Below, in pieces: positions 27,411-51,355 of a stretch of 51,355 nucleotides of DNA. This DNA comes from Cyanophora paradoxa CCMP329 (taxonomy: Eukaryota > Plantae > Glaucophyta): NCBI GenBank assembly GCA_004431415.1, contig QPMI01000538.1, forward strand, positions 1 through 51,355, given 5' to 3'. Each line of letters starts with the position of its first letter. Positions within the stretch are counted from its first letter, which is position 1. The position numbers and the translations under genes are program-made. Below the pieces are notes generated by a model. It did not search any database. It was not told where the DNA came from and saw nothing but the letters and a program-made list of their open reading frames with translations.

Positions 27411-27809
27411 TCAAAACGGGAATCTATCATGTTTATGTCTCTCAGTCTTCTCAAATGTTAAGAAATTCATTGTTTTATCGATCTCATCTGCTACTGATTG
27501 TGTTTTATGCTGAGCTTCTTTACCACAACTGAATATATCAATTGCTAACATGCCTTCATTGGAATAACAATGAGCTGTACAATGGCTTTCATCTAATAGC
27601 AGAACCAAAGCAAAACCAGGAGGTGATAGTTTGCCATCAAATATCTCACAGTGTTTATGAACAATCCTAATACCTTGTCTCAATATTGCTTGTTCAAGGG
27701 TTCTCATAATCCAATTACCAAGAAAGCTAACATGCTCATAACCTGTTGCTATAGCTGTTTTAGCCTTGTAATCAAGCATTACATGAAAGCCTCTGTATTT
27801 AGTCTCCAT
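27411..27809 (-). CDS. speD: S-adenosylmethionine decarboxylase proenzyme (short prokaryote-type)
   Basis: LLLDESHCTAHCY...LAIDIFSCG: ESH autocleavage (pyruvoyl) motif plus the D..SCG motif; 132 aa. Confidence 0.85.
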   Translation of the reverse strand: METKYRGFHVMLDYKAKTAIATGYEHVSFLGNWIMRTLEQAILRQGIRIVHKHCEIFDGKLSPPGFALVLLLDESHCTAHCYSNEGMLAIDIFSCGKEAQHKTQSVADEIDKTMNFLTFEKTERHKHDRFPF

Positions 27810-29488: not shown

Positions 29489-29537
29489 GATGGTGAATTC
29501 TTATACGTTTTACCAAGCTATTTTTTATATCATTTTT

Positions 29538-30392: not shown

Positions 30393-30431
30393 TGCTTCTT
30401 TTACTAAGAAGGAAAGAAAAATAAACTACCA

Positions 30432-30737
30432 TCAAGCCAAAGTGATTAAATTCGATCCAAGGGATTGGTAAACAGTTGAAAGAACTTGCAGGTTGGACGT
30501 CATTGCTTTAATGTTGTTATCACACTCATTGTATTTAGCAACAGGGTCACCATATGCAGCTTGAGCAAGGACATTAACCAAGAGGTTTTTATACTCATTT
30601 ACAACTGGTGAGAGCTTGTTAGTTTGCTGAATCGTTTTTTCCACTGTTTGTAATGCGTTTACAAGGGTGATTGTATCAAAAGAAAGCGCAACAGGCTCAG
30701 TAGAATAGGTGGTTCCACCAAGTGGATAGGTCGCCAT
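30432..30737 (-). CDS. Hypothetical protein (101 aa)
   Basis: Intact ORF tightly packed behind the fibre gene. Confidence 0.6.
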   Translation of the reverse strand: MATYPLGGTTYSTEPVALSFDTITLVNALQTVEKTIQQTNKLSPVVNEYKNLLVNVLAQAAYGDPVAKYNECDNNIKAMTSNLQVLSTVYQSLGSNLITLA

Positions 30738-30740
30738 TTA

Positions 30741-33700
30741 TTATACTGTGACATTTTTAATTTGGTCTATTTGACTTTGGAGATTTTCACATGTTTGTGT
30801 TAAATATTTGCATTTCTGGGATAATTCCTTTACAGCTTCTATGAGAACTGGAATTAAACCGGTGTATTCGAGAGCTAAGTAGCCATCGTCTTGTTTTGCT
30901 CTCACAACTTCTGGTATTACCTGTTGCACATCTTGCGCAATTAAACCTAATCTTGTTCCATCTTTTTCACTTCCGATTCGTTTAAAACTCACTCCTTCTA
31001 ATTTCTCTATTGCTGAAAGAGCGCCAGTTATCTTTTTAATATCGGTTTTGTATCTTCTATCGCTACCTTGTCCGAGATAGTTTCTAACCCACATGTATCC
31101 ATCATCATTTATAAATGCTACATGTGTATCCCACGTATTTCTAAATTCTACTACTGTTGTTGCATGTCCTCTAATATATGTAGTTGATGCTGAACCGAAA
31201 TATATTCTTGAATAACCTTCACTTGAAGTAATCCAAGTTCCGGTTGCCCAAGTTGTGCGTTCATCTTTACTAAAAACGTTATCCCAACTTATAAAACCAT
31301 TTGCTGGGGCTGTTCTTCCTTTTTCTTTTGTCCATCCAATCATACCAATATGACATCTCCCTTTTCTTGCAACAAATCTTACATAGGAGAATGTATCACA
31401 ATGGAAAGAAGTCCATGTTAAGCCATCATGCCAATCTGAATCGTAATTATTTGAAACGGCTTGGTAGCAATTCACCCTCATAATGTGATGCCACCTCCCA
31501 TTTCGATAGCCTCCAATATCGAAATATCTGCAATTTGTCCAACACATATACTGAACATGACATGTTTTCATATTGGCTGGGACTTCAATTTGCGCCCAAC
31601 CACCATCTGTTTCATCGCCTGAAATGTTACTATAAAATCCATCGACTGGATTTGTGTAGGTTGGTGTCCAACCTGTTGTCCAAGATCCACTAAATGATAA
31701 GCTGTAAGAACCTGTTCCACTCCAAGTATCAAAACCTGTAATGTTTCCTATCGAATTAGTCACATTTGTTAATGTAAGCATAGAAGGTTTACTATAAACA
31801 TTATCCCAGTGGATAAAACCTGTGTGACCACCATAACTGGATCCATTCCATACTTTCATAAAACTAATACCCATAATGTGAACCCTTCCAACTTTTGCAT
31901 AAATCCGAATGCGAATAAAACGATTTCCAAGATGGATTTGAACATTATTTACACCACTATGGTTACCATCTGCTGAGGTGCTATATGGGTTGTAACTGTT
32001 GACAGTTGTAATATAAATACCATTTCCTTGTCGATTAATTCCCCAAATCTCAAACAATCGACAGTTTCCCCAAGGTAAATATGTTAAATATGCTGTTCCT
32101 GTGTGTAAACCATCGGGTATATTGTATTCTATCCAAGCGGAAGAAGTTTGGTCATCAACTTCATTATTAAATGCATACCCACCATAATTATAATATGGAT
32201 CCCATGATGATCCATACCCGAAATTCCAACCAGAAGAATAATTATATGGAGAACTACCTGCAACTGAGGCATCTGCTGTGTGAAACTTTGGAACAGCATT
32301 ACCATTTATTTGGAGATTTGTAGTAGCATTTATAGTGGTTGCTGTAATGGTATTATTGACCCAAAGGTTACCATTGTCATAAGATTTTAATAATGCTGTA
32401 TCTCCTGAGTTTCTAAATTCGATAGAGACACCTTCACCATTCCCATACCCTCGAATATATGTTGTATTCCCACTACCAAACCAAAACCTTGGAATATTAT
32501 CTGTTGATTTGTGCCAGTCCACAGAGTTCACTGTCAATAGATCACCTAAAACGTTAGGGACTTCTGCCTTTGTTGCATAAGTGCCTGCAAAATCAGGTTT
32601 ACTAAATACATTATCCCAAGAGATCATGCCCAATTCATTATCTGTTGCTCTCTGTCTGCTCCAACCAAAAACACCTGTGAGATGAATGCGACCTTTTCGA
32701 CCTTGAACATAAATATATTTGTAGAATTCGCAATTGACAGAGACAAACAAGATTGTATTGTGTGTTCCATCCTGATTAACCTGTTGAATTCCCTGATAGG
32801 CATTAACTCGTTTTAAGAAATGTTGATATCCATTAGTTGTTTGTCCATAGATATCGAAATATCTACAATTATACCAAGGCATATGCTGGATATAAAACGA
32901 TTTCATCCCTGCTGGAATAAGCCATCTCATCCAACAGCCACTGCAATCAGCATCATTCTCTGGTGTGGTGTAGCAACCATTTTGCCCTGTTCTTGATGCC
33001 CATGTAACAGTCCAGTTATCTGGAGATCTGTCTGTCGAAATAACATCTAATTGGTCGAAATCATAACCTTTTGGTATTGTGGTTCCCCCAATTTGTAGAG
33101 TGGTAGCATTCACAGTTCCATTAACAGTTCCACCTGTAAGAGGTAAATAATTCCCAAGAGCTGCTGTCAACTCTGCATCTGTTGCATAGCTATTTAAACT
33201 GGCTGAGGTCAGATATCCTTTATTGTTAAGGTAATCATCTGTCACTACTCCTGAAAGGGTGGTATTGTGTAAGTTTTTGGCTGCCATCCTCTGATTGACT
33301 TCTAAGGCTCCACCTGATGTCGTTTTAACCCAAGCAATCTCGCATTTTCCATGATCATCTGTGGGTTGTCCCGCAACAGGAAGGTAGTTTACAACTTTCT
33401 CCCTTGTGAACACAATTTTAGGTCTTGCTCCATCATATGCGCTTTGATCTGTAACGTTTATTTGAATAGCTGCTGAAAAATCGGCTACTTGTCCTGTTTC
33501 ACCTGGGTGATAATTCGTAACATAGATACTGGGGAAAGTATCATTTACTCCTACATTAAAATCACCATCATAAACTCCATTTACGATTGGATCCCTGGGT
33601 AATCTTACTGCAAGAGTTCCCTCCATTGGAGTGCCTGTTTGACCTGTAAAAGTCCCATTAAGACTGACATAATGATCATTCAAATATAACCTTTCAGGTG

Positions 33701-36250
33701 TATTACTGGATTGGTAAAGTGTGACTCCATTGAAAACATTTCCAATCGCATTCAATTGTGCAAATACTGGTTGTTGATCGATTTCACTCCAAGGGTGTCT
33801 GTGATTGCAGTTGGTGATCTGGGAATAATCATGACTGTGTGGATCAGGTGGAAAAGTTAATGGTGGATTTACGATTTGCTCCCATAAATGCCCATGGGAA
33901 CTGGGAGGGAATGTTAATGGTGGATTTGTTATATGCTCCCATAAATGCTCATGTGCAAAATCTGTTATTTCATCTTTTGTGTGGGTGTGGTTGTCGATCC
34001 AACCTAAAACTACATTGGATGTAGGATGATTTGGTAGATTTGCTGCAATATTCACAGTCAAATAGTCGACTTCTAGATTACTTCCGTAAATATTGCTTGC
34101 CCATAGATTACTGGTGTAAATGTTACTTGTATAAAGGTTACTGGTGAAAATGTTACTTGTGACTGTAAGGTTTGTGTCATTTTTGATCACAAAAAGAGAA
34201 AGAATGTTTGTTAATTCACCTTCATCAATATATCCTTGCTCTTCTAAATAATCCTCTGTGACCACTCTCGAAATAGTCTCATTGTGAATATTCTTTGCAG
34301 CCATCCTCTGATTGGCTTCCAGAACCCCACCATAGTTTGTTTTAATCCATGCAAGCTCTGCCCTTCCATAGTTATCATTTGCAGTTCCCACTATGGGAAT
34401 ATAGGAATATTTATCTCGACTGAAAACTATCATTGGTCTTGATCCATCTAGACTGCTTACATCTGCTACATGAACCTGTATAGCAGAGTTGTAATTTTGG
34501 TAGGTTGCTGGGTCTGTTGGGACTCTGAATGTATCTGTGGGAATGTCAGCCTCCATGTAGCTTGACACAAAGATATTTGGTATGGTTGCTCCTGGTTCAG
34601 GTGGTGGATTATAAGAGCCTGGTAATGTCCTAATATGAAGTGGTCCTCTCATAGCTGAATTCGCAAGTGTCCCATTCACATGAACATAGTGGTGATTCAA
34701 AAAGATCCTTTCAGGGACATTGCAAGTCTGGTAAAGAGAAACCCCCAAGTTATCAAGAGGCTCTACCTTTGCGAATTCTGGTTGGTCATTAATCTCATCC
34801 CAAGTATGTTCATGTTTGCTTGGTGGGAACTCAGTTGGAATCCCATCAATATCACCCCAATCATGCCTGTGGTCTTCTGGTGGGTATTTCTGTGGTTTGC
34901 CTAAGATCTCATCCCAGTCATGATTGTGGTCCTCTGGGGGATACTTTGCAGGTTTATTATTAATTTGTTCATAATCAGGGAAGAACTCCCAGATCTCAGG
35001 TCGAAATCCATCTGGTAACAATTCCTCATGGGGTTCATAAGGTTGCTCATAGTCAACAGCTGGTGGATCATGACCATCTGGTAAATACTCCTCATCAGGT
35101 TCATAGTTCTGTTCATACTCATATTCTTGTGGGTCAAAACCATCTGGGAGTATCTCCTCCTCATTGGGGTCAAACTGATCATACTCATATTCTTGTGGGT
35201 CGAAACCATCTGGTAAATACTCTTCCTCATCTGGAACGAATTGATATTCATCAAGCTCTAATATATCGACTTCAGGAGGTAAATACTGCTCATCTATTTG
35301 CTTTCTGGGTTCAATTATAGGTTTATTGCGAACTTGCTCCCAACTAACAATATGCTGCCAAAGGCTACATCTTCAGTTGCTGTGTATTCTCTTCCAGGCT
35401 GTTTCTTTGGTGTTAAATCGGGAGGTCCATTTGGAAATGGAATAGGGAATGGAACTGTTGGTCCATTGGGACCATAATGCTCAATTATTTCCCTTAGAGT
35501 TTTCTCACTCACAAGTTTCTCCCCATTTGCATACACATTGCTGCCATGGATATTTCGCCATTGCCTGGTTCTAATTCCAAGGTCTTTCACATTGCTATAC
35601 AAAGGCAAAAGGTGCCTATCCATTTCGACTAAATCAGGATGTAAATGGATTGCTACTGGTTGACTGGGGCTACTGTTGATTGTAATTGATGGCTTTTTTT
35701 GATGGACATCTTTTGGAGTAAAAAACCCAAAAGGCTCATTCCTCGCAAAGTCATATGTAATATCCTTGGGGTATACATCATTTGTGTAGGAGACCTGATT
35801 TGTGTTGGCAATGGGACCCACTTGCAATACTTGGGGGACCTCAGCTTTTGCAGTGCTGCCCTCATTGTAAATTCGCAAAGCTGTGTTCTGTTTGCCCTGC
35901 TCATCTTGAACATTGAAAATCAATCGACCACTATCGAACCTGGAAGGTATATCTGGGTGAGTGCCACTGGTTTTTAGTTTCCTAGGTCTCCTTCTTGTTG
36001 CTTTGATCTCTGCTACTTGGTTTGCTTTCACATTACCCAAACTAAAGGCTACACTGACATCCTCTTTATCTGGATCGGTTTGATTCACAGATAAAGCATG
36101 CTCCCTTGATTGAGTCTTTGATGAATTATCAGAGCTGTGGTCAATTGAAACTGAACCCTTTACTTTAATATTATCAAAGTTCACATGCTTGGTGCTGCTT
36201 GCATTATCATCTTGAATGGTTTCTAGATTTGGTGGGTAATTGAAGCTCAT
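30741..36250 (-). CDS. Large fibre protein with C-terminal intramolecular chaperone (peptidase S74); ~1836 aa if one missing T near 35360 is restored
   Basis: The frame of the 1426-aa ORF stays open to ~35365 and joins the 311-aa ORF (GCCTTT[T]GG). HxHxWxxIxxxP repeats, acidic LPDGFDPQEYEY repeats, and SDRRYK...GLIAQDV...YTGLIPVLIEAVKEL (S74). Confidence 0.82.
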
Positions 36251-36293: not shown

Positions 36294-37850
36294 ATGCCTC
36301 TCAAAGTAGTTCTCAGTTTGTCAGGGGGAGGTGCAAGGGGCATTATCATAACCAGGCTGCTCAAAGAAATCGAAAATCGAACTGGCAGGAGAATAATCGA
36401 TCTTGTGGATCTTGTGAGTGGAACTTCCACTGGTGGGATCATTGCTATTGGGTTAAACATCAGGCATCCTGATAAACCAGGTGAACCTAAACTGACAGCA
36501 AACGATTTACACAATATTTACCTAACTCAACTGCCCTTGATTTTCGCAAATCCTCGAAATATAATCGAAAATGCCCTATTTAACACAAAGTATGATGTGG
36601 GACCCTTGGAGACTGCAATCAATTCAGTTACTGGTGAATCACTAATACAGGATTCCCTTAAGGACATTGTGATCACATCCTTTGATACTCAGAATATGAA
36701 ACCAATATTTATCACAAATGACAACAATTACAACTTTATGCCTTGTAAGATTGCTGCTAGGGCTACTTCTGCTGCTCCTACATATTTCTCTCCTGTAAGC
36801 ATTGTTGATTTCAATAGGGGAGTATATGTCTGTCTCATTGATGGTGCCATTTCGGGAAACAATAATCCCAGTGTGTGTGGTTACAGCCATGCAAAGAAGA
36901 TTTACAGTGATGATGATGACATTATAGTAATAAGCATCTCTTGTGGAGAGGTGGACCCACATTTAGAGTCTGATTATGTGGGTTATGCTTATGAGACTGT
37001 AAACAGCTGGGGCATTCTCTCATGGATTGCCTCAACAGATGGAAGCCCATTGATTAACATGCTCATGGCTGCAAGTGAGCTATCTGCCCTTGATAAGATG
37101 GAGGAGTTGTTACCCTACAACTATGATCAGGATTATGGGAGATACTATAGGTTATCAGTCCCTCTTCCAAATCATATAGTAAGCTCCCTGGATGACACAT
37201 CTAAGATCCCAGACATGCTTGCATTCACTGAAACATACATTGCAGCAAACAATGATATGATTAATAAGCTTTGCAGCCTACTAGTAGCAAACTATGAACT
37301 AAAGAACCCTACAAAGGCTTACATTTCATCCACTCTCACTACATCACCTCCTTTGGATGCCAATTGGTATCAGCTTGCAGATGATGCCTTTACTGCCTCA
37401 TCCTCTGTGACAGGTAAAGAGCCTTTCATGGCTAGACCTTCAGCATTTGGCTGGGAAGCTGGAGCCTATGCTCCTGAACAGATATGGGAAACCCCCACTG
37501 AATACCTTCAAGTTGCTTTTCCATATACTTTTGAACTCTCCTCTGTGATTGCCTATGGATCAGGGGACACCAATGCTTTTATTAAGACTTTCAATGTGGC
37601 AACATCCACTGATGGGATCAACTGGTCTTTTATTCGATCAGATGGGCAAAACAAAATATATGTCTGTGAGAACATTAACAATGCTCACAACTCTGGTGAT
37701 GTGGCTCTATTGAGTGGGTTCCCTCTCAGCATCAAGGATGCTTTTTACATAGGTTATTCTCTGAGAATAAGATATATTCGCATTTATCCCCTTGTGTATG
37801 TGAATGCTCCCACAATGAGAGTTGACTTTACAGGTGCCTTTATTCGATAA
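36294..37850 (+). CDS. Patatin-like phospholipase fused to a discoidin (F5/8 type C)-like domain
   Basis: SGGGARG, GTSTG, ATSAAPTYF, IDG; C-terminal STDGINW...RYIRIYP...MRVDFTG. Confidence 0.88.
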   Translation: MPLKVVLSLSGGGARGIIITRLLKEIENRTGRRIIDLVDLVSGTSTGGIIAIGLNIRHPDKPGEPKLTANDLHNIYLTQLPLIFANPRNIIENALFNTKYDVGPLETAINSVTGESLIQDSLKDIVITSFDTQNMKPIFITNDNNYNFMPCKIAARATSAAPTYFSPVSIVDFNRGVYVCLIDGAISGNNNPSVCGYSHAKKIYSDDDDIIVISISCGEVDPHLESDYVGYAYETVNSWGILSWIASTDGSPLINMLMAASELSALDKMEELLPYNYDQDYGRYYRLSVPLPNHIVSSLDDTSKIPDMLAFTETYIAANNDMINKLCSLLVANYELKNPTKAYISSTLTTSPPLDANWYQLADDAFTASSSVTGKEPFMARPSAFGWEAGAYAPEQIWETPTEYLQVAFPYTFELSSVIAYGSGDTNAFIKTFNVATSTDGINWSFIRSDGQNKIYVCENINNAHNSGDVALLSGFPLSIKDAFYIGYSLRIRYIRIYPLVYVNAPTMRVDFTGAFIR

Positions 37851-38772
37851 ACTCCAACTGAAAAGAATTATCGATTCCATTCATATCAATCAGTTCACCA
37901 AAGTAATCTTTAAACTCCACAGTGAGTTCCCTTATCACCAGGTTTCTGTCATTGATTTGAATAAATTCTGCATGTTCACCACTATGGTAAACATAGCCCC
38001 CTATATCTTTACTCAATTGCAATCTAAGGATAGCTCCCTGGTTTTGTGGTTGCGATTTTGGAATTATATTGTGTCTGCTGGCAAAGGGGGACAGCTCTTT
38101 AATATGCATGTACAGATACTGCTCAGCATTCATATCAGACATCTTCCTGCTGTCAAAATAATATTGCAAGGGCTTAGAGGAGAGTCTGGGTCCTGAGAAG
38201 GTGATTCCCCATGCTGGGTGATCAGGTGTAATAGGTTTGCCATCATACTTTAAAAGGTTCTCAGGTCGATAGGGAGATCCACCAACAGGAGGAGTGCTAT
38301 AATACCCAGTGGTGTATTCAGTAGAACTTACACCCAAAAGCTTTCCTATTCTCTGGTTGCTTGCAATAAAACGAAACTCATGGTTACTGTAAAACTCCAC
38401 TTTATAGGTTGTTGGGTTGTAGAATATCTTGAACTCAAAAGCTACTGTTTTGCCTGCAATAGTTTGGAAGCTTGAATAGTTCAGCCCATAATTATAAGGG
38501 TGTGTGACCCCAAAATGACCCTGATTGATGTAGCCACTGGGAAGGGGATACACTTGTTGTGTGATCACTTGGTTATATGAACCATCTTGGTAATTAAACT
38601 GAACTGTTAGATGATCAGTTCCCACACTGTTATAGATACTGTTTGGAATCTCTGCATAGAGAACCCTACATTCCCTTGGTCTCTCTACTGGAGTTGTGAG
38701 GGTGACCCTGTAAGAGTTTTCATTTTGTCCTTGGCTTCTATCCCTGCTATCAATATTAACGAGCCGGTTCAT
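37840..38772 (-). CDS. Minor capsid protein (penton) 1
   Basis: N-terminal NIDSRDR...AEIPNSIYN and C-terminal LTVEFKDYFGELIDMNGIDNSFQLEF, typical of the single-jelly-roll penton. Confidence 0.8.
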   Translation of the reverse strand: MNRLVNIDSRDRSQGQNENSYRVTLTTPVERPRECRVLYAEIPNSIYNSVGTDHLTVQFNYQDGSYNQVITQQVYPLPSGYINQGHFGVTHPYNYGLNYSSFQTIAGKTVAFEFKIFYNPTTYKVEFYSNHEFRFIASNQRIGKLLGVSSTEYTTGYYSTPPVGGSPYRPENLLKYDGKPITPDHPAWGITFSGPRLSSKPLQYYFDSRKMSDMNAEQYLYMHIKELSPFASRHNIIPKSQPQNQGAILRLQLSKDIGGYVYHSGEHAEFIQINDRNLVIRELTVEFKDYFGELIDMNGIDNSFQLEFIE

Positions 38773-38801
38773 TTTAATATATAAATATAGATAAAAGAAG
38801 A

Positions 38802-39811
38802 ATGCCTGTGGATTACATCGAGGTTAGCTCATTTAATACAATCTCTGGTGATGGTCCCACATCAAGCTTTGTGGCTAGACTCCCAGTAGTTATGAGAATG
38901 TGAGGGCTGTGAGACTGGTCTCAGCCGAATTTTATAACAGTATCCCTATGGTGAGTGGTGAAACCAAAGCAGGAGATGTGACAGTTGACAATGCATTTAG
39001 CATTTATTATTCTGAACAAACTCCTGGAGCTGGAAGCTCAGGAATTCCAACAGTTCGCCCAGCTGCTGACTATGAACAATGGAAACAATTCATTATAAGT
39101 CGAAACACCCCCATCCAAAGCCACCAGCAACTGGTGAATGTAATTAACTCTAAATTCGAAGGCAGAAATCCCCAACCATCCATTCGCTGCAAATGGGATG
39201 AATCACTGAAACGAATTATATTCCACTCAGCAGTACCATTTTACTTGGCTTTCTCAGTAGCTGTGAACCCAAGCCAACAAACAATCCAAAAGCTGTTGAG
39301 TTCAGCTAGACTGCTGGGTCTTGATCCTGGAAGATATGGTAACTCCCCAATCCAATCACAGGTCTATGATGCTCTCACTGATGGAATCTTTACTGGTGGT
39401 CGCGTGAATGGCATTATATCTTCTTTTGAGCCTGAGAAGACCAGGGACAGTGTTTTGTTTGTGAGAGTAAAGGAGCTGGGTGATCTGGTGCAATGTGGGG
39501 ATGGTCTTCTGACTGGTTACTTTCACAAAATAGTGGTCCCTGATAAAGACTATGGTGAGCATGTTGTTTACAATTCAACAGAAGCTCACCCACTTTACAA
39601 ATACTATAATAAAAAGGTTGGATTATCCACTTTCTCGGTTGATATTGTAAATGCTATTAATGAACCAATTGATTTTGAGGGTCAACCTGTTCATCTTACC
39701 TTTGAAATTCGCTATGGTGATGAGCCAGCTGGGGACCCAGTTTATGAATACTTCAAGATGCGAATGTCACAGCTTCACCCTTCCTATCCAGTTATTACAA
39801 ACTTCGCATAA
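38802..39811 (+). CDS. Minor capsid protein (penton) 2 (frameshift near 38885)
   Basis: ATG at 38802, MPVDYIEVSS...YENVRAVRLVSAEFYNS; C-terminal VDIVNAINEPIDFEGQPVHLTFEI. Confidence 0.72.
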
Positions 39812-39864
39812 ATTAAGGATCATTGGTAGATTTTTTATGTTGCAGTATAATAAAAGAGAATATA

Positions 39865-41231
39865 ATGGATATCACTTCCACTCTTCAAAGACTTTCGCTG
39901 AAAGAAGCCCTAACAACCCCAGAAGAGGCGAAAGCCTTTTTCCTGGATAACTCCCTTATGCTTGGTCTCGAATCCAAATCTAAGCCAGTTCTAGTTGTTG
40001 TGAATCCCAGCAATACTTTTGAGAATAATGTTGGAAATCGCATTTCCTTCAAGCTACCTCGCTACAATTTCTGTGGAAAACTCGAACTTGCTTTCGACCT
40101 TCCAGCCATCACTTTTGGTGGTGAAGATCTTGTTCGAAATGGATACACTCGCCCTGTTGGTGCTTTAGTTCAGCGACTTGAAATTACCTATGGATCTTAC
40201 ACCTACCATATTCCATCTGATTTCCTTGCTCATTTCCCCCTGGTCTATTATTCGGAGGATCAACTAGCTAAAAAGAAACGCTCAATGGGCATGGTTCATG
40301 GTATCCCTGCTCATGGAACCAACCGACTTGGTGGCTCATTCTTTGTTGAAATCCAGTGCCTTGGCTCAATCACTACCTTCCCCTTGGTGCTTTATCTGGT
40401 GAAATGGTTGTTACTGTTTGGTTTAAGGATGCTGATAAGGGTTATGTTGAGACTTCCTATGGTGGTCGCTCTCTTCCTGTTGTTGGTGGGACAGCTGCTG
40501 ATAAGACAGAAGATGATGGTCTTGGTGATACTGCTAATGCTACACTTGCCCATGTTGGTCAAAATATCACAACTTTCAGCCTTGGTGCAACAACCCCTGG
40601 TATTACAATTACCTCTCCTCGCCTTTACATGCATGCTGTTAATGTTTCTGATGAGCTTTTCGCTACTGTAATTGAAAAGGTTAAGACTACTGGCATGGCT
40701 ATTCCTGCTCTAGACATTGGGTTTGTTGATGCTAGTGCTTTCCCTGCCAAGGGCAATGCCCAACCCAATCGAATTAACCTCTCTCAAATATCAGGTCTTG
40801 TATATGCTCTGCTTGTTTCAGTTCGTGATAATGCAACTGTTGACAAAGCCAATGGCTCCCACAGTGTTCTTAAGACCTATGCCAACTCCAAAGATATTAC
40901 TTTCACTGTTGAAATTAATGGACAACGACTTTATGCCACTGAGCCAATTCCACTGCTCAAAGGTGCTGAGCTAATTGCTGATGCCTTCAAATGCTCTAAC
41001 ATGGATAAGGTTGCTGATCGCTATGTCCTTTCGGGTATGAGTTTCTGCATTGATGGAGAGAAGGCAATTCGAAATATTGCCCAGTCTGGTTATGTTGATT
41101 TAACAAATTCCTCCTCTTCATTCCTCACCCTGTACATGCCTTCAGATAAGGTAATCGATGTTAATGTTCGCGCTCTCATGCATTCCTATATAATTTTGGA
41201 CAAAGATGGTCTCCGAAGAATTAATTTATAG
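39865..41231 (+). CDS. Major capsid protein, double jelly-roll (~455 aa; one frameshift near 40354)
   Basis: ISFKLPR...LELAFDLP...LVQRLEITYG; adding one C restores VEIPVPWLNHYLPL. Size and position between penton and ATPase fit. Confidence 0.78.
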
Positions 41232-41296
41232 ATTGTTACGATATTCAGTCTCTCTGCATTATTTTTATCTGTATTTATTTAGAAAGATATACAACA

Positions 41297-42079
41297 ATGA
41301 CTGATTTGGATGAATTTGTGGCTGGTGAAATGATTAATCCCCCTTTTCGAGTCCTAGCCATTGGTAAATCGGCTACTGGTAAATCAGAAGCTGTAAAGTA
41401 TTGGTTGAAGCAGTTGCATGATGCCAAAAAGATTGATGTTGTATTAGTTGTGAGTGGAACCAGCTTCAATCATTTCTGGGATAAAGTTGCAACATTGCAA
41501 CTGGGAAAATGGGATGCCCCTTACATTGCTAAATTGCTAGATGAAAGGCAAGAGAAAATAGAAAAAGGTGAACCTGTTAACCAGTTATGTGTGGTTCTAG
41601 ATGATTTAATCGATAATGAGATTGTAGACCTAACTCGTGATAAAATTATTGGCTCTCTGTATTCCAGAGGTCGCCATTCGAAAATATCCATTATCTGCAT
41701 CACACAAAAGCTAAGGAAAGTCTCTTCGACTATTCGAGTTAATTCGGACTATGCAATGTTTCTAAGTGCTGCAAATCGCAAAGAACTTGAAGCCATAGAG
41801 GAAGAATACAATATAATGCGAAATAAAGAGGATTTTTACAAGATGTTTGAAGAGTATGTTCACTCCTATCAGTATATTATTTGGTCCTCTGCAAACTACT
41901 CAGTTAAATACTATGTAGATAAAGCTGAGCTTGTGAAAGATTTTCCATTTCCTCGCTTCCACAGGAAGCCAAAAAAGAAAGAAGATGAACTGAAACCTCC
42001 AGAGAAAGAGGAAGCCCCTAAAGAAGTGAAAAGCCAAGTCCATAGCAATAAATTGATGCGATATAAACGCGGTTTATAA
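41297..42079 (+). CDS. A32/FtsK-HerA-type DNA packaging ATPase
   Basis: Walker A GKSATGKS, Walker B VVLDD, SRGRH (Arg finger), ICITQ, IRVNSDY. Confidence 0.92.
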   Translation: MTDLDEFVAGEMINPPFRVLAIGKSATGKSEAVKYWLKQLHDAKKIDVVLVVSGTSFNHFWDKVATLQLGKWDAPYIAKLLDERQEKIEKGEPVNQLCVVLDDLIDNEIVDLTRDKIIGSLYSRGRHSKISIICITQKLRKVSSTIRVNSDYAMFLSAANRKELEAIEEEYNIMRNKEDFYKMFEEYVHSYQYIIWSSANYSVKYYVDKAELVKDFPFPRFHRKPKKKEDELKPPEKEEAPKEVKSQVHSNKLMRYKRGL

Positions 42080-42107
42080 AATTATCTCTCATTCTAATAA
42101 AGATACA

Positions 42108-42548
42108 ATGCCTCCCAAACGAAAGATAGGGATCCCAGCTGGGGCTGTTGGCTATTCAGGTGGTGGAAACAATGGATCCATTAATACTGAACCAATGAAA
42201 TTCAATGGTATGAATGAGGTAAAGCCCTCACAACAAGAAGAGGACCCCCTCAATGCTGCCTATGAGGAATCAGTCGATGACAAAGCCCCACAGGCTTCAA
42301 CCAGTGACCAACTCAATATATCACCAGAAGCCTCAAAAATGAAAGCTGTTGCTGAGGGTGCCAGGCGAATTATTGGTGCTGCTGATGATAAAGGTTTAGG
42401 CTTGCAAGATCTATCACTGGCTCGCAAAGGTGAAGGTCTAAGTAAGGAATCAGACAAGGTTATCCAGTCTATGGCTGGTGAAGTCACATATAAGACTGCT
42501 CCCACTCAAAATATTCATCGAATCCCCAAGGCTCAATGGATGAGATGA
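42108..42548 (+). CDS. Hypothetical protein with N-terminal NLS-like PPKRK
   Basis: ORF of 146 aa with an upstream TAATAAAG; may continue into 42536-43124 through frameshifts. Confidence 0.55.
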   Translation: MPPKRKIGIPAGAVGYSGGGNNGSINTEPMKFNGMNEVKPSQQEEDPLNAAYEESVDDKAPQASTSDQLNISPEASKMKAVAEGARRIIGAADDKGLGLQDLSLARKGEGLSKESDKVIQSMAGEVTYKTAPTQNIHRIPKAQWMR

Positions 42549-43124
42549 CTGCTAAACTTAAAGATCTGGAAGCCAAATCAAGTGCCTTGGAGCAGTATGT
42601 TACTGAGAAGAAAGAGAGAGCTAAGCTAAAGGAGATGCTTCGAAAGGAAGTTATAAAATGGGCATTACTGGTGTCCCAGATAAACAGTTCATTGCTAAGA
42701 AAGAGACCAAATCGATGAGCAAGCAGTAGATGAAATGAAAACAAAGACCCAGAAGGGAACTATTGAACCTGGTGCCACCAAAGCTGAAGTAGAAAAGGGA
42801 GTAGCCCAACAGTATATAAAAGACGAGTTTGGCTTTAATTTTCTCTGTTTTATTAGAGATATGGACATAATACGAAAGTTCTTCGAGATGTTCAGTCTGC
42901 ATGTGGTGAGCAATTGCCACAGTGGATGTTGTGAGACAACAGTGGAGTTTGAGATGTCAGATAATGAGGATAATGCCTCAGAAGCAAGAGAGAGAAGGAG
43001 GTCTACAGTTTCTGTGGAGTCAATGCCAGCAGACCCCACAGAGTATACATATGAGCAACAGGAGCAACAGGAGTATCCAAGGAGAAGTTCTCTGTCAGCA
43101 GAAAACGTTTTCTCTGGAATATAA
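42536..43124 (+). CDS. Hypothetical coiled-coil/acidic protein (probably frameshifted)
   Basis: Adjacent same-strand ORFs 42536-42718 and 42735-43124. Confidence 0.4.
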
Positions 43125-43201
43125 ATGGAGGACACTATTAGTTTAATCGAGTTTACCAGTGATGAACCTGTTACTGAGGTTCTATAAGACACATTCTAGC
43201 A

Positions 43202-43465
43202 ATGCAGAAACGATATAGAGAGGACCCAGCATATAGAGAGTATAAAAAGCAGCAAGCCTGGCATCCTATTATCGCAGAAAAGCCCAAAAAGAGGAGCAGA
43301 GACCCAGAGGGAGACCGATTAAATATTATTTGCCAACTGAAAGTAGCAATGGACCCCCAGGTCTATAAGATAATTGAGAAAAAGCGGTCTCAGTATGCAA
43401 CTGAGGCAGCTATAAAAATATATACAAAGGAATTGGCTTTATACTTGCAATCAAGTCACAGATAA
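43202..43465 (+). CDS. Hypothetical basic protein
   Basis: ORF beginning MQKRYREDPAYREYKKQQA; the true start may be 43126. Confidence 0.4.
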   Translation: MQKRYREDPAYREYKKQQAWHPIIAEKPKKRSRDPEGDRLNIICQLKVAMDPQVYKIIEKKRSQYATEAAIKIYTKELALYLQSSHR

Positions 43466-43677
43466 CTTTTGTAAATATGCTTTTGTTGTTTTTTGTTTGC
43501 ATTCTCAGACACTGAAACAGTTATGTGAATGTTTACTGATCTATTTCTCTTTGGTTTTGTTGCATACATATTGTAACCTTTTAATCTCTGTGACATTTCG
43601 ATATATGCCCCTATATCTCCATGCTTTATGCATTTATCTAACTCAGTCATGGTCATCTCATCAAGAGTCTTTGCCAT
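43456..43677 (-). CDS. Small hypothetical protein (MAKTLDEM...)
   Basis: ATG at 43677 preceded by a TACTTAAG motif like those of the other leftward genes in this block. Confidence 0.4.
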   Translation of the reverse strand: MAKTLDEMTMTELDKCIKHGDIGAYIEMSQRLKGYNMYATKPKRNRSVNIHITVSVSENANKKQQKHIYKSYL

Positions 43678-43744
43678 TTTGTCTTCACTATACACAATCA
43701 AGTAAGCCTTAAGTATTCTTGTCAAATTTTGGTCTTTTTCGATC

Positions 43745-43846
43745 GGTGTCACAGGTGTCACAGGTGTCACAGGTCTATCCCACCGATTTTCAAAATCATT
43801 TTTTATGTTTGACTTTCCCTGGGATGGACCTGTGACACCTGTGAAC
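43745..43846. promoter_or_regulatory. Iteron-type origin-like element, copy 2 (core inverted relative to copy 1)
   Basis: (GGTGTCACA)x3...GATTTTCAAAATC...TGTGACACC, about 60 bp downstream of the primase-helicase stop. Confidence 0.65.
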
Positions 43847-43906
43847 AACACCATTTCCAGTAAGGCTATAAACATTACATATACAATCAATCATTTATCG
43901 TTTTGT

Positions 43907-46213
43907 TTAATATTCAACATCCTCTCCATTGTCTTCTTGAACCCTTGTTATCTTTCGAAGTCCAATGTAGCCCCTTGCTCTGGTTCCATGAATTCGTTTA
44001 ACCTCTGATTTAACATTGAAGATTTCCCTTACTCTTTTCATAACAGATACACATTCAACTTTATCATCTACACTTTTGTATGATCTGTAAATGATATCAC
44101 TGGAAACAAAGTCGTTAGCATTATGTGTAACCTCGAAATTATCTCGAAGCCATTCACCAATCTTGTCATTTTCAGCTATAAAGTTAATTCCCTGTTCAAT
44201 AATCGATTGAGGGGGACTTCTTAAGATCTCTTCAACCTCTTTGTTCTTCCACATATCCAGTAATATCTTCATGTGAGCCATCTTATACTCATCATCATTG
44301 TGAAGAAGTGTGAACAGAGTTGGATCAGCTTTCTTCTGACCAGCTTCAGGCTTCTCTCTGAAAATATTGTTGAATCTCTGGTATGAAAGTCTTCTTTGAA
44401 TTGCGAAGTCTGGTTTATTAATAGTCAAATTGTCATTAGTTGTAATGTAAACTTGAAACATTGGAGTGAGGATAACTGGATCTTTGAACAAGGCTCTCAC
44501 AGTCATTTCATTTCCACCTGTGACCTCCTTAATCTTGGAGATCTGCAGTTTATCACCATCTTCAGCCTCATTACTGAATACAAGTCGCTTTCCAAGGAGT
44601 TTGGCAAGTTCAGGAGTAGCCTCTGATGAGTTCTTTTTAGGCTTAGTCCAATAGGATATTTCGAGAGGGCTGTAATAACGACCAGATATCTGTTTGCAGT
44701 ATTCCTGAACAAGTGATTTACCATTAGCACCAGCACCAGTCCACATATAGAACTTCTGGGATTTAGTTGATCCACTAAGGGCAATTGCAATGGATGCCAG
44801 AAGATACTTTCGCTCTGCTGGATCATCCACAATCTCTTTATAAATCTGATTTAGATGCTCTATTTTCTTGGGGTCTACATTTTCAGTATAGTCATAACCC
44901 ACAGTCTTACTCACCATATCTTCCAGTTTACCCTTTCTGAAAGTCATAGTGGTCAGATCAAATACACCATTTTCGAATCCAATCACATATGGAACAGTGT
45001 CAATCTTCTCAAAGAATTCATCATCATTCAGCAGTGGGACCAAGTCAGTCAGAAGGGATTTGCGAAATCCTGATTGTTTAAGGTTTTTGGCAATGGTCAT
45101 CAATGTTTTGGATCTTTCTTCGAAAGTTGCTTTGTTTTCCTCATCCTTTAAGCTCTTTGACTATAATGCACAGCCCTTCCAAGGTATTGGGGACAACAAG
45201 ACGGCTTATATCTAGGTAAATCTTAAGGTTTGTGTCATCAAGCTCCCAAATCCAGTATCAGTATTGAGTTTGAACCATGACTTTTTGGAGTATCTCCAAG
45301 TGTGTTTCAGAACCTCTTTGCATACTAAACTTACATCATAATGAGCGCCACCTGAACCAGCGGATTTATCTATAAGATTAAAGATATCAGATTGCATTCC
45401 AATGCAGATGAATCGTTTTTTGCAATTTCCACTGTAGCTTGACACAATGTATTTGTTATCATCTCCTTAGCTTTCATAACATACCAGTTATTCGATTCAT
45501 GTGAACCGTTACAGCATGGGCAATTGAGTCCCTTGTTAGCAGCATCAAAGTTAAAGCCAAGTTCAGTTTAGAGATTATATTGGATGCATAAATCCCATAT
45601 CCACCAGCTCTTTGATAATATTGTTTTCCAGTTCATCATATGAGTAGCATTAGCAGTATACTCACTCTTATAGATGTAGTTATCGATAATCCACTTTTGA
45701 AGTCATCAGTAGGCTCATTGAATCACAGGTATCATCCCATGGGAGATCACCAAGCCTTGTTGACACTGGACAAACATTAATTAATCCAGAAGTTCCAGTT
45801 CCAGTGATTGTTTTCAGGTCACTTTTCAAAGCCTTTAAGCCTGGAGCCTTATCGTGATTTTGAGTTTAGTGAACTCCTCAGTCGTTTAAAGTAGACATGA
45901 TAGCCTTTTTTAGTTTTGCCATGGGCTGATTGGCATCAAAGTCATCAGGAACATATCCGGAATTTCTCAAAGTTCTCCTCATCATCAAAGTCAATAACCA
46001 TCATGTTGTCTGAGAGCAGAATGCCCCAAGATACATACTGATTAGTTGCCAGCGCTTCCTCATACTTTTCCCAGGACCAAGCACCTCCCTTATGCTTGAA
46101 AACTGGGTCTTTGCTGTCAGGTTTCACTGGGATAATCATGTTTTGGACAGTTCCTCATCAGAACGAAGCCAGTTAGCGAGCGATTTAATTAACTTGGTCT
46201 GTTTGGCGTTCAT
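43907..46213 (-). CDS. Prim-Pol primase fused to a D5-like SF3 helicase (several frameshifts)
   Basis: N-terminal IIPVKPDSKDP...WGILLSDNMMVIDFD...KKGYHVYF (Prim-Pol); IGFENGVFDL (D5_N); Walker A GAGANGKS; FSNE; ITTND; IQRRL. Confidence 0.88.
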
Positions 46214-46342
46214 TTTCAGCGATTGGGGTCCTTTTATATATATAGAGATTTTTCTTAAGTAGTTTTGGGTCCCCCAATCATTTTTTGTTGGAAATCGAGA
46301 AAGTATCCCTACGAAATTTATCCACATGATATATCGAGTGGT

Positions 46343-46672
46343 TTAGATACAAAAAGGATGAATGGGTATTTCAGCGATTAAACAGCATATCCCCAGCCTA
46401 GTTATATGCTGGGAAAAATAATTTAGACATGTTTCGATTTCTCCTCGATTGAGTAGGGACATCATACAAATACTTGACAAAGCAGACTGCATTGGCTGCA
46501 TACTTTCGCTGACATGAACTGCAATTTTCATTGTTCTGTAGGTATCATCGGTTTGATATAGATCTCTAAGCTGTGTGGCTATTTTTTTCGTTAAACTTTT
46601 TGATTTGAGCCTTACCTTTTTCAGTTTGCTGGTATCTCTTCATAGCTCTCTTCTGGGCTTCACTGATGGCAT
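46343..46672 (-). CDS. Small hypothetical basic protein (frameshifted)
   Basis: ATG at 46672 downstream of the conserved TATATATA promoter-like motif. Confidence 0.35.
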
Positions 46673-46727
46673 TTTTCCTCTGTCTCTCTTAATATATATA
46701 GAGAATTCTTTAAATCATTTTTGTTCT

Positions 46728-47542
46728 CTAACCTCTTTGTCCAAATCGCTCAATATACATAAGTTTGAAATGCTTACCTAGCAATGCTACAAATGGTTCG
46801 ATTTCCAAGGTCTCCCATGTTTTCTTGTCCTTATTCCATCTGCAATCTAATCCTTTTGCGATATCTTTTTTAAGATAAGGCACCTGAAACCCAGCAACCA
46901 ATGTATTTGTTGTACTGAGTTCTGCATACATTTCAATCAATGCAGATCTGCCCTCTCTGAACCTCTCTATATCATCTCTGCGAAGATTATCCATTTTCGG
47001 AATAAATTGGTTGCACCAAATCAGGAAAAGATTAACTGCATGTTTATTCCTTGCTCTTTCTTGTTCTAATTCTCTCTGTCTTCGCTCTCTTTCTTCTAAT
47101 TCAAGCTGCCTCTTTCGAGCTTCCTCTTGTTTTTCAAGTTCTCTTTTTCTTTCCAGTTCTTCTTGCTTTAAAGCGATTCTGCACTTATTACAGAAATTAT
47201 CCTTTCGGTTTTTATGCCGATCTCCACATCTTTCACATATATCTTGACCTCTGGCACCCTTCGGAATAAATCGTAAAATGCAGCAATTCCCAACAATGAC
47301 CACAATCTTTTATTAACATGCAGAATATAGCATTGCTCTTTAATTGGATGATCACAGGCGCAATGCTCAGACTCTGGAGGCAGGTCATAGTCACTTAATC
47401 CATATTTTGCAAGCTTTGCCCAAAGAGGGAGCGGTTTCCTGTTACTTCCAAGAGCAACATAATCATTGAAGTTATCAGATCCACAAAGCAACATTAAAGC
47501 CGCTTTGAGCTTTTCCAGGCAATACGATTTCTTCTCTGCCAT
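46728..47542 (-). CDS. Cys-rich, coiled-coil, DUF5710-like protein (frameshift near 47305)
   Basis: CACDHPIKEQCYI...VGNCCILRF...CERCGDRHKNRKDNFCNKC; C-terminal VPYLKKDIAKGLDCRWNKDKKTW. Confidence 0.6.
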
Positions 47543-47651
47543 TGTCCTTTTATATATATAGAAGATATTTCTTTAAGTAGTTTTCATCAAATTTTGTGTT
47601 CAGAATTCCCCATTTAAAACCTCTCCTTTTAGTAGGAACAAGTTAGGAACT

Positions 47652-50600
47652 ATGCCCCGAATTAGCAACAGACTCATTAGAGAGAAGAAATGGGAACTCA
47701 TGGGATTACTGGGAACACTGTATGCAGCCCATGAAATCACAGAGGCTGAATATGACCGGGAAATCGGATTTATTTCAAGGGGCAGACCCACTTTAGCAAA
47801 ATTAACCAGAAAAGCCAATAACCTCTATGACAAAGTTGAGACTCTTGATGAACTCGATCGCCTGAGGCAAATAGAACCAGAGGCAGAAGATGGAACAGCC
47901 ATGAATGAATTATATCGCTGGCTCACATACAGAGCCAGAAGGGAAGTTGTTGTTAGATGTGATTGAATATTTAGATAGAATTGCAACCTCTCTACCAAAA
48001 CGTTTAAGGATAGTCTGGATCAATTCAGGGCAATCAAAGTTCGCTTGTCGTTTATCTGCAAGTTCGTAAAAGTCAGCAATCCACAGGTTTGGATATCGAA
48101 ATACATTTACAGCGATTATTTTGTATTAACCAAATCGAGAAATATTCGAACTGAGCTGAATAAAGCAGCCCAAATGTGTCAGGAACAGATGAATGTTGTT
48201 GATAGCTATCGATTGGAGAGAATCGAAATGCTAAGAGTTGCTATTATGAGTTATGCCCCAACTGGTGGCTGCTATGTTAAAACACCAGAATCAATTGCAG
48301 CCAAGAGAGCCACAGTGAATATTCGAAATATTGATGATTCTTGCTTTGAAAATGCCATTTTGGCATGGATCCATAGGAAAGATGTAAATTCCCACAAGAG
48401 AAGTGAGCTTACACAATATCGCAAATGGAAATACTCACCAACCACATACAATCCTTTGGCTCTCAATTTCGACAATATCCCATTCCCTGTTCCTTGTGAT
48501 GCTGAAATCATTGATAAATTCGAATCTCAAAATGCAGGCATCAGCATAAACATATTTGGAATGGATGGAGATGTTATATATCCCTACATCAATCCAGCAA
48601 CCCAGGCAGAAAGCAAAAGATTAATCTAATGCTCATTCATGATGATGAAGGGAATGGTCACTATATTACAATCATGTCCCTTTCAAGACTTCTCAGAGTT
48701 GCCCTTGATAAAACCAAGGATCAAAAGTTACACTACTGTGATACATGCTTATCTCGATTCAGGTCTGAGGCTAAACTCACTGCTCATGTGGACTCAAACA
48801 GATGCATTGATTGGAGACTCTCAAAGGGAATCACCCTAACCTGAACCACCATAGAGTTTGGACTGAAAAACCTCAGGAAAACTGTCTGGCTTCCTGTTGT
48901 GGTTTACTGCAAGATTGAACATAGAAGCATCCCCATTGATGCATCGAAATCCAAGAGGGAAGTCTCAGCAGTCAACCTAGAATAGTCACTGGGGCAGATG
49001 TTCAGATTTTCGATTTGAGGGCAGGATCCAATGGGAGGTCTGTTTGAATGCTTGGAGTCCAAAGCAAGAGAGCTAATCGATTTCCTGTTCACCAATATTC
49101 CCATGAATGAACTCACAGATGAGCAAAAGGCTATTTACAGAGCTACAAACACTGTTACCTTTGCAGTGAGAGGTTCACCAAGGAAAACTTCAAATGCAGG
49201 GATCATGATCACCACACAGGTAATTACATTGCTCCTGCATGCAGAAACTGCAATCTCCATAGGAGAATCTCAAAGCAAACAAAGTAGCAGTGGTTGTTGA
49301 CCAAATGGATGACTGTGGGACATTCATTTTCAGAAAAATAGCAGGCATGGGTGATAAAAAGCGAATCGAAATCCTTTCGAAAAACTTTGATCAATACCTT
49401 TCATTGCAATGGGGTCTTTACAAGTTCATTGATGCAAGTAATTTATGGACTTTGGGGCTGCTGATGTAGATGAGTTAATGAGCAAATTCCAGGCTTTCAG
49501 AAGGCTTTCACACTCAGTATATGGATTGGACCCAGTTCATTATGTATCTGCACCTGGGTTATCTTGGGATGCTATGCTTAGGACCACCAAGGCAAAAATA
49601 GAGCTTATAAGTGATGTAGAGCAATACGAATTTGTTGAGAGGGGAATCAGGGGTGGCTTTGCAACAATGCCTTGTAGGTATGCTGAGGCTGATGGTGAGA
49701 ACTCCCATATAATGCTGTTTGATGCTAACAACTTGTATGGCTACTGTTTGAGTCAGCCAATCCAGTTGGTGATTTTAGATGGGAGACCGAATTCAACCCA
49801 CAAGATAACAGATCCAGTTTCCTGGAAGTTGATCTGGATTACCCAATTAGGCTATATCTAGACCACAGTGATTTCCCCCTAATTATTAACAAGAAAATAG
49901 TAGAATATGCGAATTATCACAATATCAAAAGAGCCTATTAGATCTCTCAGGAGAAGAGCTTGATAAGACCCCTAAGCTAACTGCAACCTTTGGTTCTGTG
50001 ACCAACTATGTGATTTCTGAGCCTCTTCTACAGTATCTGTTGGACAAAGGGGTGAAACTAAAGAAGGTTCACAGGGTCCTATCATTTACTGTGGCTCCTG
50101 TAATGAAACCCTACATTGAGCTGAATACTGAGATGAGAAGGAAAGCAGTGAATAAATTCGAGGCTGATTTCTATAAACTCATGAATAACTCAATCTATGG
50201 GAAATGCATTGAATCTTGCAGAGGTAGATCTGTGGTTAAGATTGCAAACAGTGAGAAACTGTTTATGAAATATGCAGCCTCTCCCATTGGTGAAATCAAC
50301 AAGTCCCATAAACGAAAAAGCAGTTGCCTTTGAGTTTTACACAAAGCATGTGAAGCTAGATAAGCCAGTTGCTATTGGGGCTTATGTTTGGATGCAGCCA
50401 AACTGCATAACTACAAGTTCTTCTATGATACTGTAAGGTCCCAATGGACAAAGCAAAGTTACTATTCCATGATACTGACTCCTTGTCTATATATGAATCT
50501 AAGACCCTCAAAAAGATAGGAATATATCTTTATGCATTGGACCTAGGGGGGTCTAACAGAATGACCCCAGGTAAATACAAAAATGAAATGCCTGGCTCTG

Positions 50601-50878
50601 CTATATTGGAGTATGTGGGTCTGAGAGCTAAAGTTTACAGTTTCAGAACTGCTGAGATTGAGAGGAGTAAGCTCTCTGGGACTTCAACTGAGGAACTCCA
50701 ATTTAATGATTTTAAACAGTGTTTATTTGCAGGTATCAGCAAGACTGTGACTGCAAAGCAGAAGAGAAGGGCAGATCACACAATAATAGATACTGTGAGT
50801 AGAAGGGTTGCCCTAAACTGCTTTGATGCAAAGAGATACATCTTACCAGATGGTATTAATTCTGTTCCTTTTAATTAA
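47652..50878 (+). CDS. polB: Protein-primed family B DNA polymerase, Maverick-type (multiple frameshifts)
   Basis: NIRNIDDSCF; C2H2 finger CDTCL...H...C; RDHDHHTG...CRNCN; YGLDPVHYVSAPGLSWDAML; IRGG; motif A DANNLYG; motif B KLMNNSIYGK; motif C HDTDS; GLRAKVYS. Confidence 0.92.
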
Positions 50879-50881
50879 GAG

Positions 50882-51355
50882 ATGCCAGCAACTGGAAGAA
50901 TAGTTAGAAGAACCACTGAGCAACTGCAAGGTAACCTCTGCCTATCACATTCCAAAGGAGGAAAAGGGGAATCTCGAATTGTTCAAAAAGTCAGAATGAA
51001 AGAGCTTGTCCCAGTAGAGATCCCAGTTGCTATTGCAGTGAAAGAAACCAGCAAGATTGCCAAGAGATTCTATGATGTGAGAACTGGTTACAAAGGGCTT
51101 CAAGCTATGAGGGCTGAGTTACCTGATGAATCCTATAAGCAGTTGCAAGAGTTCTATAAAAACAAGAAGTTGTTCAGATCAATGCACCTGCTATATCTAG
51201 GAAGAGAGATCCCATGGTCAATTAGGCAACCCTTGATACCTATGTGATTGATTTACTCTTTTTCCCAGTTATAAGAAACAAACAATGGCTATGATACATT
51301 TATGACTGCAATGGAATCACACTAAGAACTGGGTATATTATACCTATAAGGGATA
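50882..51355 (+). CDS. Retroviral-like (rve) integrase, Polinton type; 5' part only, frameshifted
   Basis: FYDVRTGYKG N-terminal block. At 51241, YVIDLLFFP.YKK.NNGYDTFMTAM...GYIIP resembles the Polinton-INT block (D-L..M..Y.K.N.GY.YIL..ID). Confidence 0.72.

Follow-up and report, generated by a model that had tools for sequence, protein, structure and literature searches.

CpG depletion that spares TCGA in a virus-like element of Cyanophora paradoxa

Which process could remove most CpG steps from a stretch of DNA and leave a single tetranucleotide, TCGA, in place? The question is raised by contig QPMI01000538.1 of the glaucophyte Cyanophora paradoxa CCMP329 (assembly GCA_004431415.1), of which positions 1 to 51,355 of the forward strand (51,355 nucleotides; here called the window) were analyzed. 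The window falls into two compartments, 26.3 kb of GC-rich DNA (GC content, 0.67) followed by 25 kb of AT-rich DNA (GC content, 0.39) that runs from about position 26335 to the window end. Judged from its encoded genes, the AT-rich part is an integrated virus-like element akin to polinton-like viruses or virophages. A first-pass annotation of positions 36294 to 51355 had described CG as rare in the viral genes, with nearly every remaining CG carrying a 5′ T or a 3′ A, and had ascribed this to a context-specific cytosine methyltransferase or CpG sensor. The absence of GGCC and the near absence of GTAC from the same element are new here and go beyond that earlier observation.

CpG depletion and its flank rule

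About two thirds of the CG steps were missing from the element, TCGA excepted (positions 26330 to 51355; CpG observed/expected ratio [O/E], 0.34), and TpG and CpA were in excess (O/E, 1.30 and 1.24, respectively). The GC-rich compartment (positions 1 to 26330), treated as host flank and used as an internal control, was CG rich as first described, with a GC content of 0.67 and a CpG O/E of 1.06 over positions 1 to 26000. The rarity of CG in the viral genes was confirmed, with O/E values of 0.17 in a patatin-like gene, 0.08 in a putative DNA polymerase gene, and about 0.2 to 0.3 in the core modules. Within positions 36294 to 51355, 161 of the 181 CpGs (89%, compared with 51% expected) had a 5′ T or a 3′ A, as had been claimed. 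The pattern is present there but not confined to that range, since it starts near position 26335, at the left end of the element: 270 of 322 CpGs (84%; 52% expected) were in this context between positions 26330 and 51355, as were 271 of 325 (83%; 52% expected from base frequencies) when counting began at position 26300.

TCGA alone accounted for 110 of these 325 CpGs. Relative to base composition, its O/E was 1.24, and words with only one of the two flanks were intermediate (TCGC/GCGA, 0.59; TCGG/CCGA, 0.36; TCGT/ACGA, 0.29). Words with neither flank (VCGB; V, any base but T; B, any base but A) had a joint O/E of about 0.12, a 10-fold gap to TCGA, and all ten of them, palindromic or not, fell between 0.06 and 0.30 (GCGC, 0.30; CCGG, 0.25; GCGG, 0.14; ACGT, 0.09; ACGC and ACGG, 0.06). 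Among 5′ bases, T was spared most, followed by G and C and then by A. The flank effects were roughly multiplicative, with 110 TCGA sites observed and 111 given by TCG × CGA/CG, which means that the two flanks act about independently. The commonest hexamers around surviving CpGs were ATCGAA/TTCGAT (32 sites), ATCGAT (16), TTCGAA (13), and AACGAA (10), which include the three singled out by the first-pass annotation. Positions −4 to −2 and +2 to +4 around surviving CpGs were also A/T rich (0.73 to 0.76, compared with 0.60).

An artifact of AT richness, amino acid content, or codon usage could in principle produce such a rule. CGA was the commonest CGN arginine codon (55 of 98, with 26 CGC, 10 CGG, and 7 CGT), codons starting with GA (Asp and Glu) were common, and purifying selection would protect CGA because a C-to-T change in it creates a stop codon. 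In synonymous-codon shuffles (500 rounds within each of 26 open reading frames [ORFs]), 467 CpGs were expected and 237 observed, with 78 observed TCGA sites against 68 expected and 38 observed VCGB sites against 186. The share of CpGs in the T/A context was 0.60 in the shuffles (maximum, 0.667) and 0.84 in the element. This null retains the CpGs within codons and is thus conservative. At NNY|GNN codon junctions, where the choice between C and T is purely silent, the C share was 0.307 for TC|GA (baseline, 0.389; P = 0.089), 0.092 for TC|GB, 0.072 for VC|GA, and 0.037 for VC|GB (baseline, 0.441); the contrast between TC|GA and VC|GB at these synonymous sites gave an odds ratio (OR) of 11.5 (P = 2e-16). 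Within codons, TCG made up 7% of TCN, and CCG, ACG, and GCG made up only 1 to 3% of their boxes. T preceded 66 of the 98 CGN arginine codons, compared with 322 of 981 other codons starting with C (OR, 4.2; P = 4e-11). In 5,522 nucleotides of non-coding DNA, the O/E was 1.76 for TCGA and 0.17 for VCGB. Finally, an AT-rich patch of the host flank (positions 12040 to 12860; GC content, 0.43) had a CpG O/E of 1.35, with 21 of its 50 CpGs in the T/A context. The bias therefore persisted under every control for AT content, codon usage, and arginine codons, and an artifactual origin is rejected as extremely improbable by the shuffles, the junctions, the non-coding DNA, and the host patch.

GGCC and GTAC avoidance

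Two further short palindromes were missing from the element. GGCC did not occur in its 25 kb, compared with 36 sites expected from composition and 27 from a Markov model, and GTAC occurred 7 times, compared with 88 and 46 sites, respectively; the host flank contained 280 GGCC and 91 GTAC sites within positions 1 to 26000. In coding DNA, where expectations were taken from 300 pooled codon shuffles, no GGCC was present (23.2 expected; minimum, 13), and 5 GTAC sites were present (46.3 expected; minimum, 33). TCGA was close to its expectation in the same null (78 observed, 70 expected). One-letter neighbors of GGCC occurred at normal frequencies (O/E, 0.88 to 1.42). Among other words, GTGC/GCAC had an O/E of 0.40, GTGCAC and GAGCTC were absent, and CTGCAG was found once, compared with 9 sites under the Markov model. 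One of the GTAC sites, at position 41132, was private to this copy of the element, and nearly all contigs of three runs read CTAC there.

Because these palindromes are depleted beyond both composition and codon nulls and their neighbors are normal, the loss of GGCC and GTAC is a signature of restriction-site avoidance. It would have been driven by restriction-type nucleases, either the host's or those of a coinfecting giant virus, that select against such sites. The element seems to rely on avoidance, its visible part being without a methyltransferase. Chloroviruses are known for TCGA adenine methyltransferases and a GTAC endonuclease.

Possible causes of the CpG pattern

The flank rule was mirror symmetric, with a 5′ T at 62% and a 3′ A at 55% of CpGs on the plus strand, and the genes lie on both strands. 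This symmetry, together with the presence of the rule outside genes, argues that the process acts on duplex DNA and not on mRNA. RNA-level CpG sensing of the ZAP-like kind was rejected, since the effect is not confined to transcribed DNA or to the transcribed strand; non-coding DNA has the same pattern, and the flank shares are mirrored. At four-fold-degenerate sites preceding a G, the C share dropped from 0.236 to 0.031. Of the 0.205 lost, 0.173 went to T, twice the 0.088 that proportional replacement would give. The loss of CpG is of the transition type. Replacement of C mainly by T and action on DNA are better explained by methylation and deamination than by CpG sensing on RNA. What the first-pass annotation had proposed is thus sustained in part, as far as an agent working on DNA by C-to-T loss, independently of codons, is concerned; an RNA-level sensor fits less well, and the host flank is undepleted.

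Long ORFs remain intact in the element (1,426 amino acids [aa] for a fibre gene and 518 aa for the patatin-like gene), which implies that the CpG purge built up under selection on proteins. It must have arisen in a lineage that kept replicating and not by decay of this single copy. A promoter role for TCGA found no counterpart in its placement, as TCGA had no fixed position within 80 nucleotides upstream of 24 ORFs.

The explanation favored here, tentatively and with a probability of about 0.45, is flank-dependent CpG methylation followed by deamination of 5-methylcytosine. Cytosine methylation at CpG over a long time, and then deamination, would have eroded the CpG steps. A T immediately 5′ of the C, on either strand, would make CpG a poor substrate for the enzyme, such that TCGA would escape, the half-sites TCGB and VCGA would be partly spared, and VCGB would be nearly purged. 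Methylation would have acted while the lineage stayed under purifying selection, as the still-open state of most genes suggests, and would have targeted the element and not the host genome in general. The enzyme may have come from the host, from a helper virus, or from an earlier host. The low CpG O/E with TpG and CpA excess and the replacement of the lost C mainly by T favor this explanation.

It is also favored by the copy number of the element, as a multicopy family is the kind of DNA that genome defense methylates. Public runs of one organism contained about half of the sampled words of the element, and in one run 8,161 contig pieces matched it at 80 to 100% likeness over 20 kb, with up to 14 contigs at one place (all runs used for copy comparison were contigs). 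The element belongs to a multicopy, diverged family in its host. None of the 30 well-supported copy-specific differences created or destroyed a CpG, which agrees with a loss that took place in the replicating lineage and not in this single copy. These 30 came from 40 rows among 1,988 variable places, after 10 clustered rows (positions 31700 to 31710 and 44679 to 44681, the latter overlapping a CG of the window) were dropped.

Several observations weigh against methylation as the cause. The 30 differences reveal no ongoing CpG decay, but most CpGs that survive belong to the spared class. TpG and CpA excess extends beyond the depleted contexts (TTG, 1.34; CTG, 1.55; ATG, 1.20; GTG, 1.00). No methyltransferase gene was found with Pfam among the 29 ORFs of the visible 25 kb, and the element runs off the window. 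The host flank and its AT-rich patch are undepleted, which excludes general host CpG methylation with deamination and makes targeting an assumption of the explanation. By arithmetic on the counts, multiplicative flanks fit a model of binding or selection somewhat better than two independent per-strand mutation rates. The flanks preferred by mammalian DNMT1 or in Amoebidium differ from the hierarchy seen here. In addition, the TCGA excess in non-coding DNA at the left end hints at some positive role for TCGA-like words there.

The main rival to methylation is selection by a CpG-reading defense, in which selection, not mutation, would have made the pattern: a defense acting on DNA would penalize recognizable CpGs, and TCGA, being unrecognized, would be neutral. 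The defense could be a nuclease or a methylation-based silencing that costs expression, and copies with fewer recognizable CpGs would have an advantage in replication or reactivation. That the element evolves by avoiding sites is demonstrated by GGCC (with its normal neighbors) and GTAC in coding DNA; multiplicative flank effects are what binding energy would give, the enrichment of T before CGN arginine codons is expected under selection on flanks, and coding TCGA lies at its neutral expectation in the pooled shuffles. Replacement of C mainly by T instead of proportionally argues the other way, yet transitions also dominate the mutational supply. Ordinary four-base restriction enzymes offer no explanation, as non-palindromic VCGB words are as depleted as palindromic ones, and restriction-site avoidance was rejected as the cause of the CpG pattern because the depletion is not limited to particular sites but runs through all ten VCGB words. 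To our knowledge, which does not come from an exhaustive search, no CpG-reading nuclease has been described from a eukaryote or a giant virus. Selection of this kind is regarded as somewhat unlikely.

A methylation-independent bias of mutation or repair, inherited from the element's own replication, from that of a helper virus, or from an earlier host, would account for adjoining host DNA without such a bias, for a pattern that is uniform over modules of different function, and for the lack of CpG changes among the copy-specific differences. On the other side, CpG-specific, strand-symmetric loss of C to T is not known to have any cause besides 5-methylcytosine; such an inherited signature is distinctly improbable.

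Less probable still is active retention of TCGA, either because adenine methylation of the TaqI type blocks cytosine methylation or cleavage or because TCGA-like words are binding sites. Non-coding DNA gives this some support through its raised TCGA O/E, and the left-end non-coding stretch (positions 26330 to 27410) has a CpG O/E of 1.05, with 21 of 26 CpGs in the T/A context and repeated ATCGATAATCTGT units. Against retention, sparing extends, about three-fold, to the half-sites TCGB and VCGA, and the two half-site effects multiply to give that of TCGA, unlike the action of a four-base-specific enzyme; coding TCGA is at and not above expectation, and TCGA has no fixed place upstream of the 24 genes.

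Gene content and what the pattern may record

The HNH gene and the fibre tip had been described as breaking the CpG rule, and this was borne out for a contiguous block on the minus strand (positions 28994 to 31500) that comprises an HNH-AP2 endonuclease gene (positions 28994 to 29488), two unknown ORFs, and the C-terminal fibre tip with its S74 chaperone domain (Pfam HNH_3, AP2, and Peptidase_S74). Of the 48 CpGs in the block, 18 were VCGB, compared with 34 of 274 elsewhere (OR, 4.2; P = 7e-5), and its CpG O/E was 0.40 to 0.69, above that of the core. Taken singly, 8 of 17 CpGs in the fibre tip (P = 0.002) and 4 of 10 in the HNH gene (P = 0.064) were VCGB, with P values uncorrected for 28 segments. 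The block still contained neither GGCC nor GTAC. From its composition, it can fairly be read as a module that was acquired or exchanged later. Use of the pattern to date gene acquisitions, as first suggested, holds qualitatively for this one contiguous outlier, and no rate exists that would turn it into a date. Summed contig depth, a measure that is not a copy number, dropped several-fold over positions 31400 to 33400.

The fibre gene, which ends in the S74 chaperone domain, spans positions 30741 to 35021 on the minus strand (1,426 aa from the first start; 1,303 aa from the first ATG). Three tandem 66-nucleotide units, 70 to 80% alike, lie at positions 35044 to 35240 in the N-terminal part of the fibre region. 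The patatin-like phospholipase gene (positions 36294 to 37850, plus strand; Pfam) encodes 518 aa with an F5/8 type C domain, and none of its 11 CpGs was VCGB. A putative A32-type packaging ATPase gene follows at positions 41297 to 42079 on the plus strand (PF04665, above the cutoff; E = 5.2e-11), with 4 representatives at E < 1e-30 among 1.84 billion. Positions 43907 to 45100 on the minus strand encode a D5-like primase-helicase fragment with matches above the cutoff to Pfam D5_N and DUF5906. A gene for a predicted protein-primed DNA polymerase B on the plus strand (positions 49445 to 51355) is in at least four frame-shifted pieces and runs off the window, with matches to PF03175 below the cutoff (E = 2.7e-4 and 0.022). 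Other copies have single extra bases at positions 49021, 49145, 50386, 50965, 51229, and 51279, and the several breaks in its frame reflect either a decayed copy or one-base assembly deletions in a repeat. An S-adenosylmethionine decarboxylase-like gene lies at positions 27411 to 27809 on the minus strand (PF02675; E = 2.5e-11; 44.3 bits against a cutoff of 25); its product would consume the methyl donor, and a relevance to methylation conflict is speculative.

The assignment to polinton-like viruses or virophages is made because of this encoded gene set, namely, the ATPase, the D5-like protein, the polymerase pieces, the fibre, the patatin-like protein, the HNH-AP2 endonuclease, and the decarboxylase-like enzyme. 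An A32-type ATPase and a replication gene (D5_N and DUF5906) are both present. No double jelly-roll major capsid or penton protein was matched by Pfam among the window proteins, and the only lead was an ORF at positions 38948 to 39811 (plus strand), without a Pfam match, whose nearest clusters in a protein atlas were viral (DUF5901, 0.97; V18-19, 0.96); it is considered penton- or minor-capsid-like as a lead only. Adjoining the ATPase gene, two overlapping ORFs of 268 and 275 aa in different frames occupy positions 39865 to 41231 on the plus strand. Probably they belong to a single gene of 455 aa that a frameshift has divided, and its position suggests a major capsid protein.

Neither an integrase nor terminal repeats were seen in the visible 25 kb, with the right end of the element outside the window. 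At the left end (positions 26335 to 26618), exactly at the break in GC content, the 41-nucleotide arms of an inverted repeat (positions 26335 to 26375 and 26578 to 26618; 85% complementary) enclose 202 nucleotides of TCGA-rich non-coding DNA with a twice-repeated ATCGATAATCTGT unit; the structure is either the element's terminus or a small repeat that was inserted there. A palindrome with three GGTGTCACA units per arm was found at positions 26851 to 26980, near the left end, and again at positions 43736 to 43865, just downstream of the D5-like gene. The two copies are 82 to 97% alike and are candidates for an origin or for protein-binding iterons. In the host flank, one ORF encodes a makorin-like zinc finger of eukaryotic type, and a long G run (about 30 G, at positions 11925 to 11960) lies beside the AT-rich, CpG-rich patch.

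Relatives of the element were sparse. Single-protein and alignment scans of viral contigs with the ATPase and four further window proteins (P0002, P0004, P0005, and P0008) returned none, nor did the phage records contain one. No sufficiently conserved stretch emerged from an alignment of 40 ATPases. A metagenome scan gave one 1,050-base contig at 25% identity, useless for composition, and a word-index protein search gave one homologue (86%); none of ten window proteins looked up was present in the protein collection.

Depletion of CpG with TpG and CpA excess and silent C-to-T change resembles that in systems of CpG methylation and deamination, such as vertebrate genomes, methylated transposons, and small and latent DNA viruses. 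Unlike in those systems, flank dependence here is 10-fold, TCGA is wholly spared, and host DNA is undepleted, and the pattern is known from sequence alone. Strong discrimination by flank is a property of eukaryotic CpG methyltransferases. Mammalian DNMT1 differs almost 100-fold in activity among NNCGNN flanks, with TCCGTA high and CGCGAG low (PMC7381644), and in the protist Amoebidium appalachense, in which integrated viruses are methylated, the methylation level of CG is about 70% in the GCG/CGC contexts, compared with about 20% at the remaining CG sites (PMC11244446). The order found here, with A the most and T the least depleted 5′ base, is unlike either, and the available portions of both papers report no sequence footprint of flank preference in viral DNA (PMC7381644, PMC11244446). 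The purge of short palindromes beyond composition and codon nulls resembles restriction-site avoidance in bacteriophages, with the differences that the element is eukaryotic, virus-like, and integrated, that no methyltransferase is seen in its visible part, and that the CpG pattern is not limited to palindromes.

Polinton-like viruses often carry methyltransferase or Tet-like genes, which the authors read as methylation conflict (10.64898/2026.06.19.733378), and giant viruses have been proposed to be in restriction-modification conflict with virophages or polinton-like viruses (10.1101/2019.12.21.884833, 10.64898/2026.06.19.733378). In the literature searched, no report of TCGA-sparing CpG depletion was found, and no phage-style sequence footprint of nucleases or methyltransferases in polinton-like viruses was found in print.

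That viruses and transposons lose CpG is well known; a flank rule that is graded and symmetric and leaves one tetranucleotide untouched makes a precise prediction about the enzyme behind it. If methylation is the cause, VCGB should be methylated and TCGA bare on the element's family in its host. The combined CpG, GGCC, and GTAC pattern likely records long exposure to flank-selective CpG methylation, or to another CpG-directed defense, and to restriction-like nucleases. From this it seems that, much like phages, polinton-like viruses integrated in protists bear footprints of the nucleases and methyltransferases that they have met, and the outlier block from the HNH gene to the fibre tip indicates that modules exchanged recently can be recognized by such footprints. 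It is possible, albeit doubtful, that the element is a readout of three DNA-level defenses, namely, a CpG methylation or reading system blind to TCGA, which would be the protist's or a giant virus's, and nucleases cutting GGCC and GTAC. If so, conflict between eukaryotic viruses and their hosts, or among the viruses themselves, could be read from k-mer footprints, as it can in phages, and sequence alone would predict which flanks an uncharacterized eukaryotic methyltransferase prefers.

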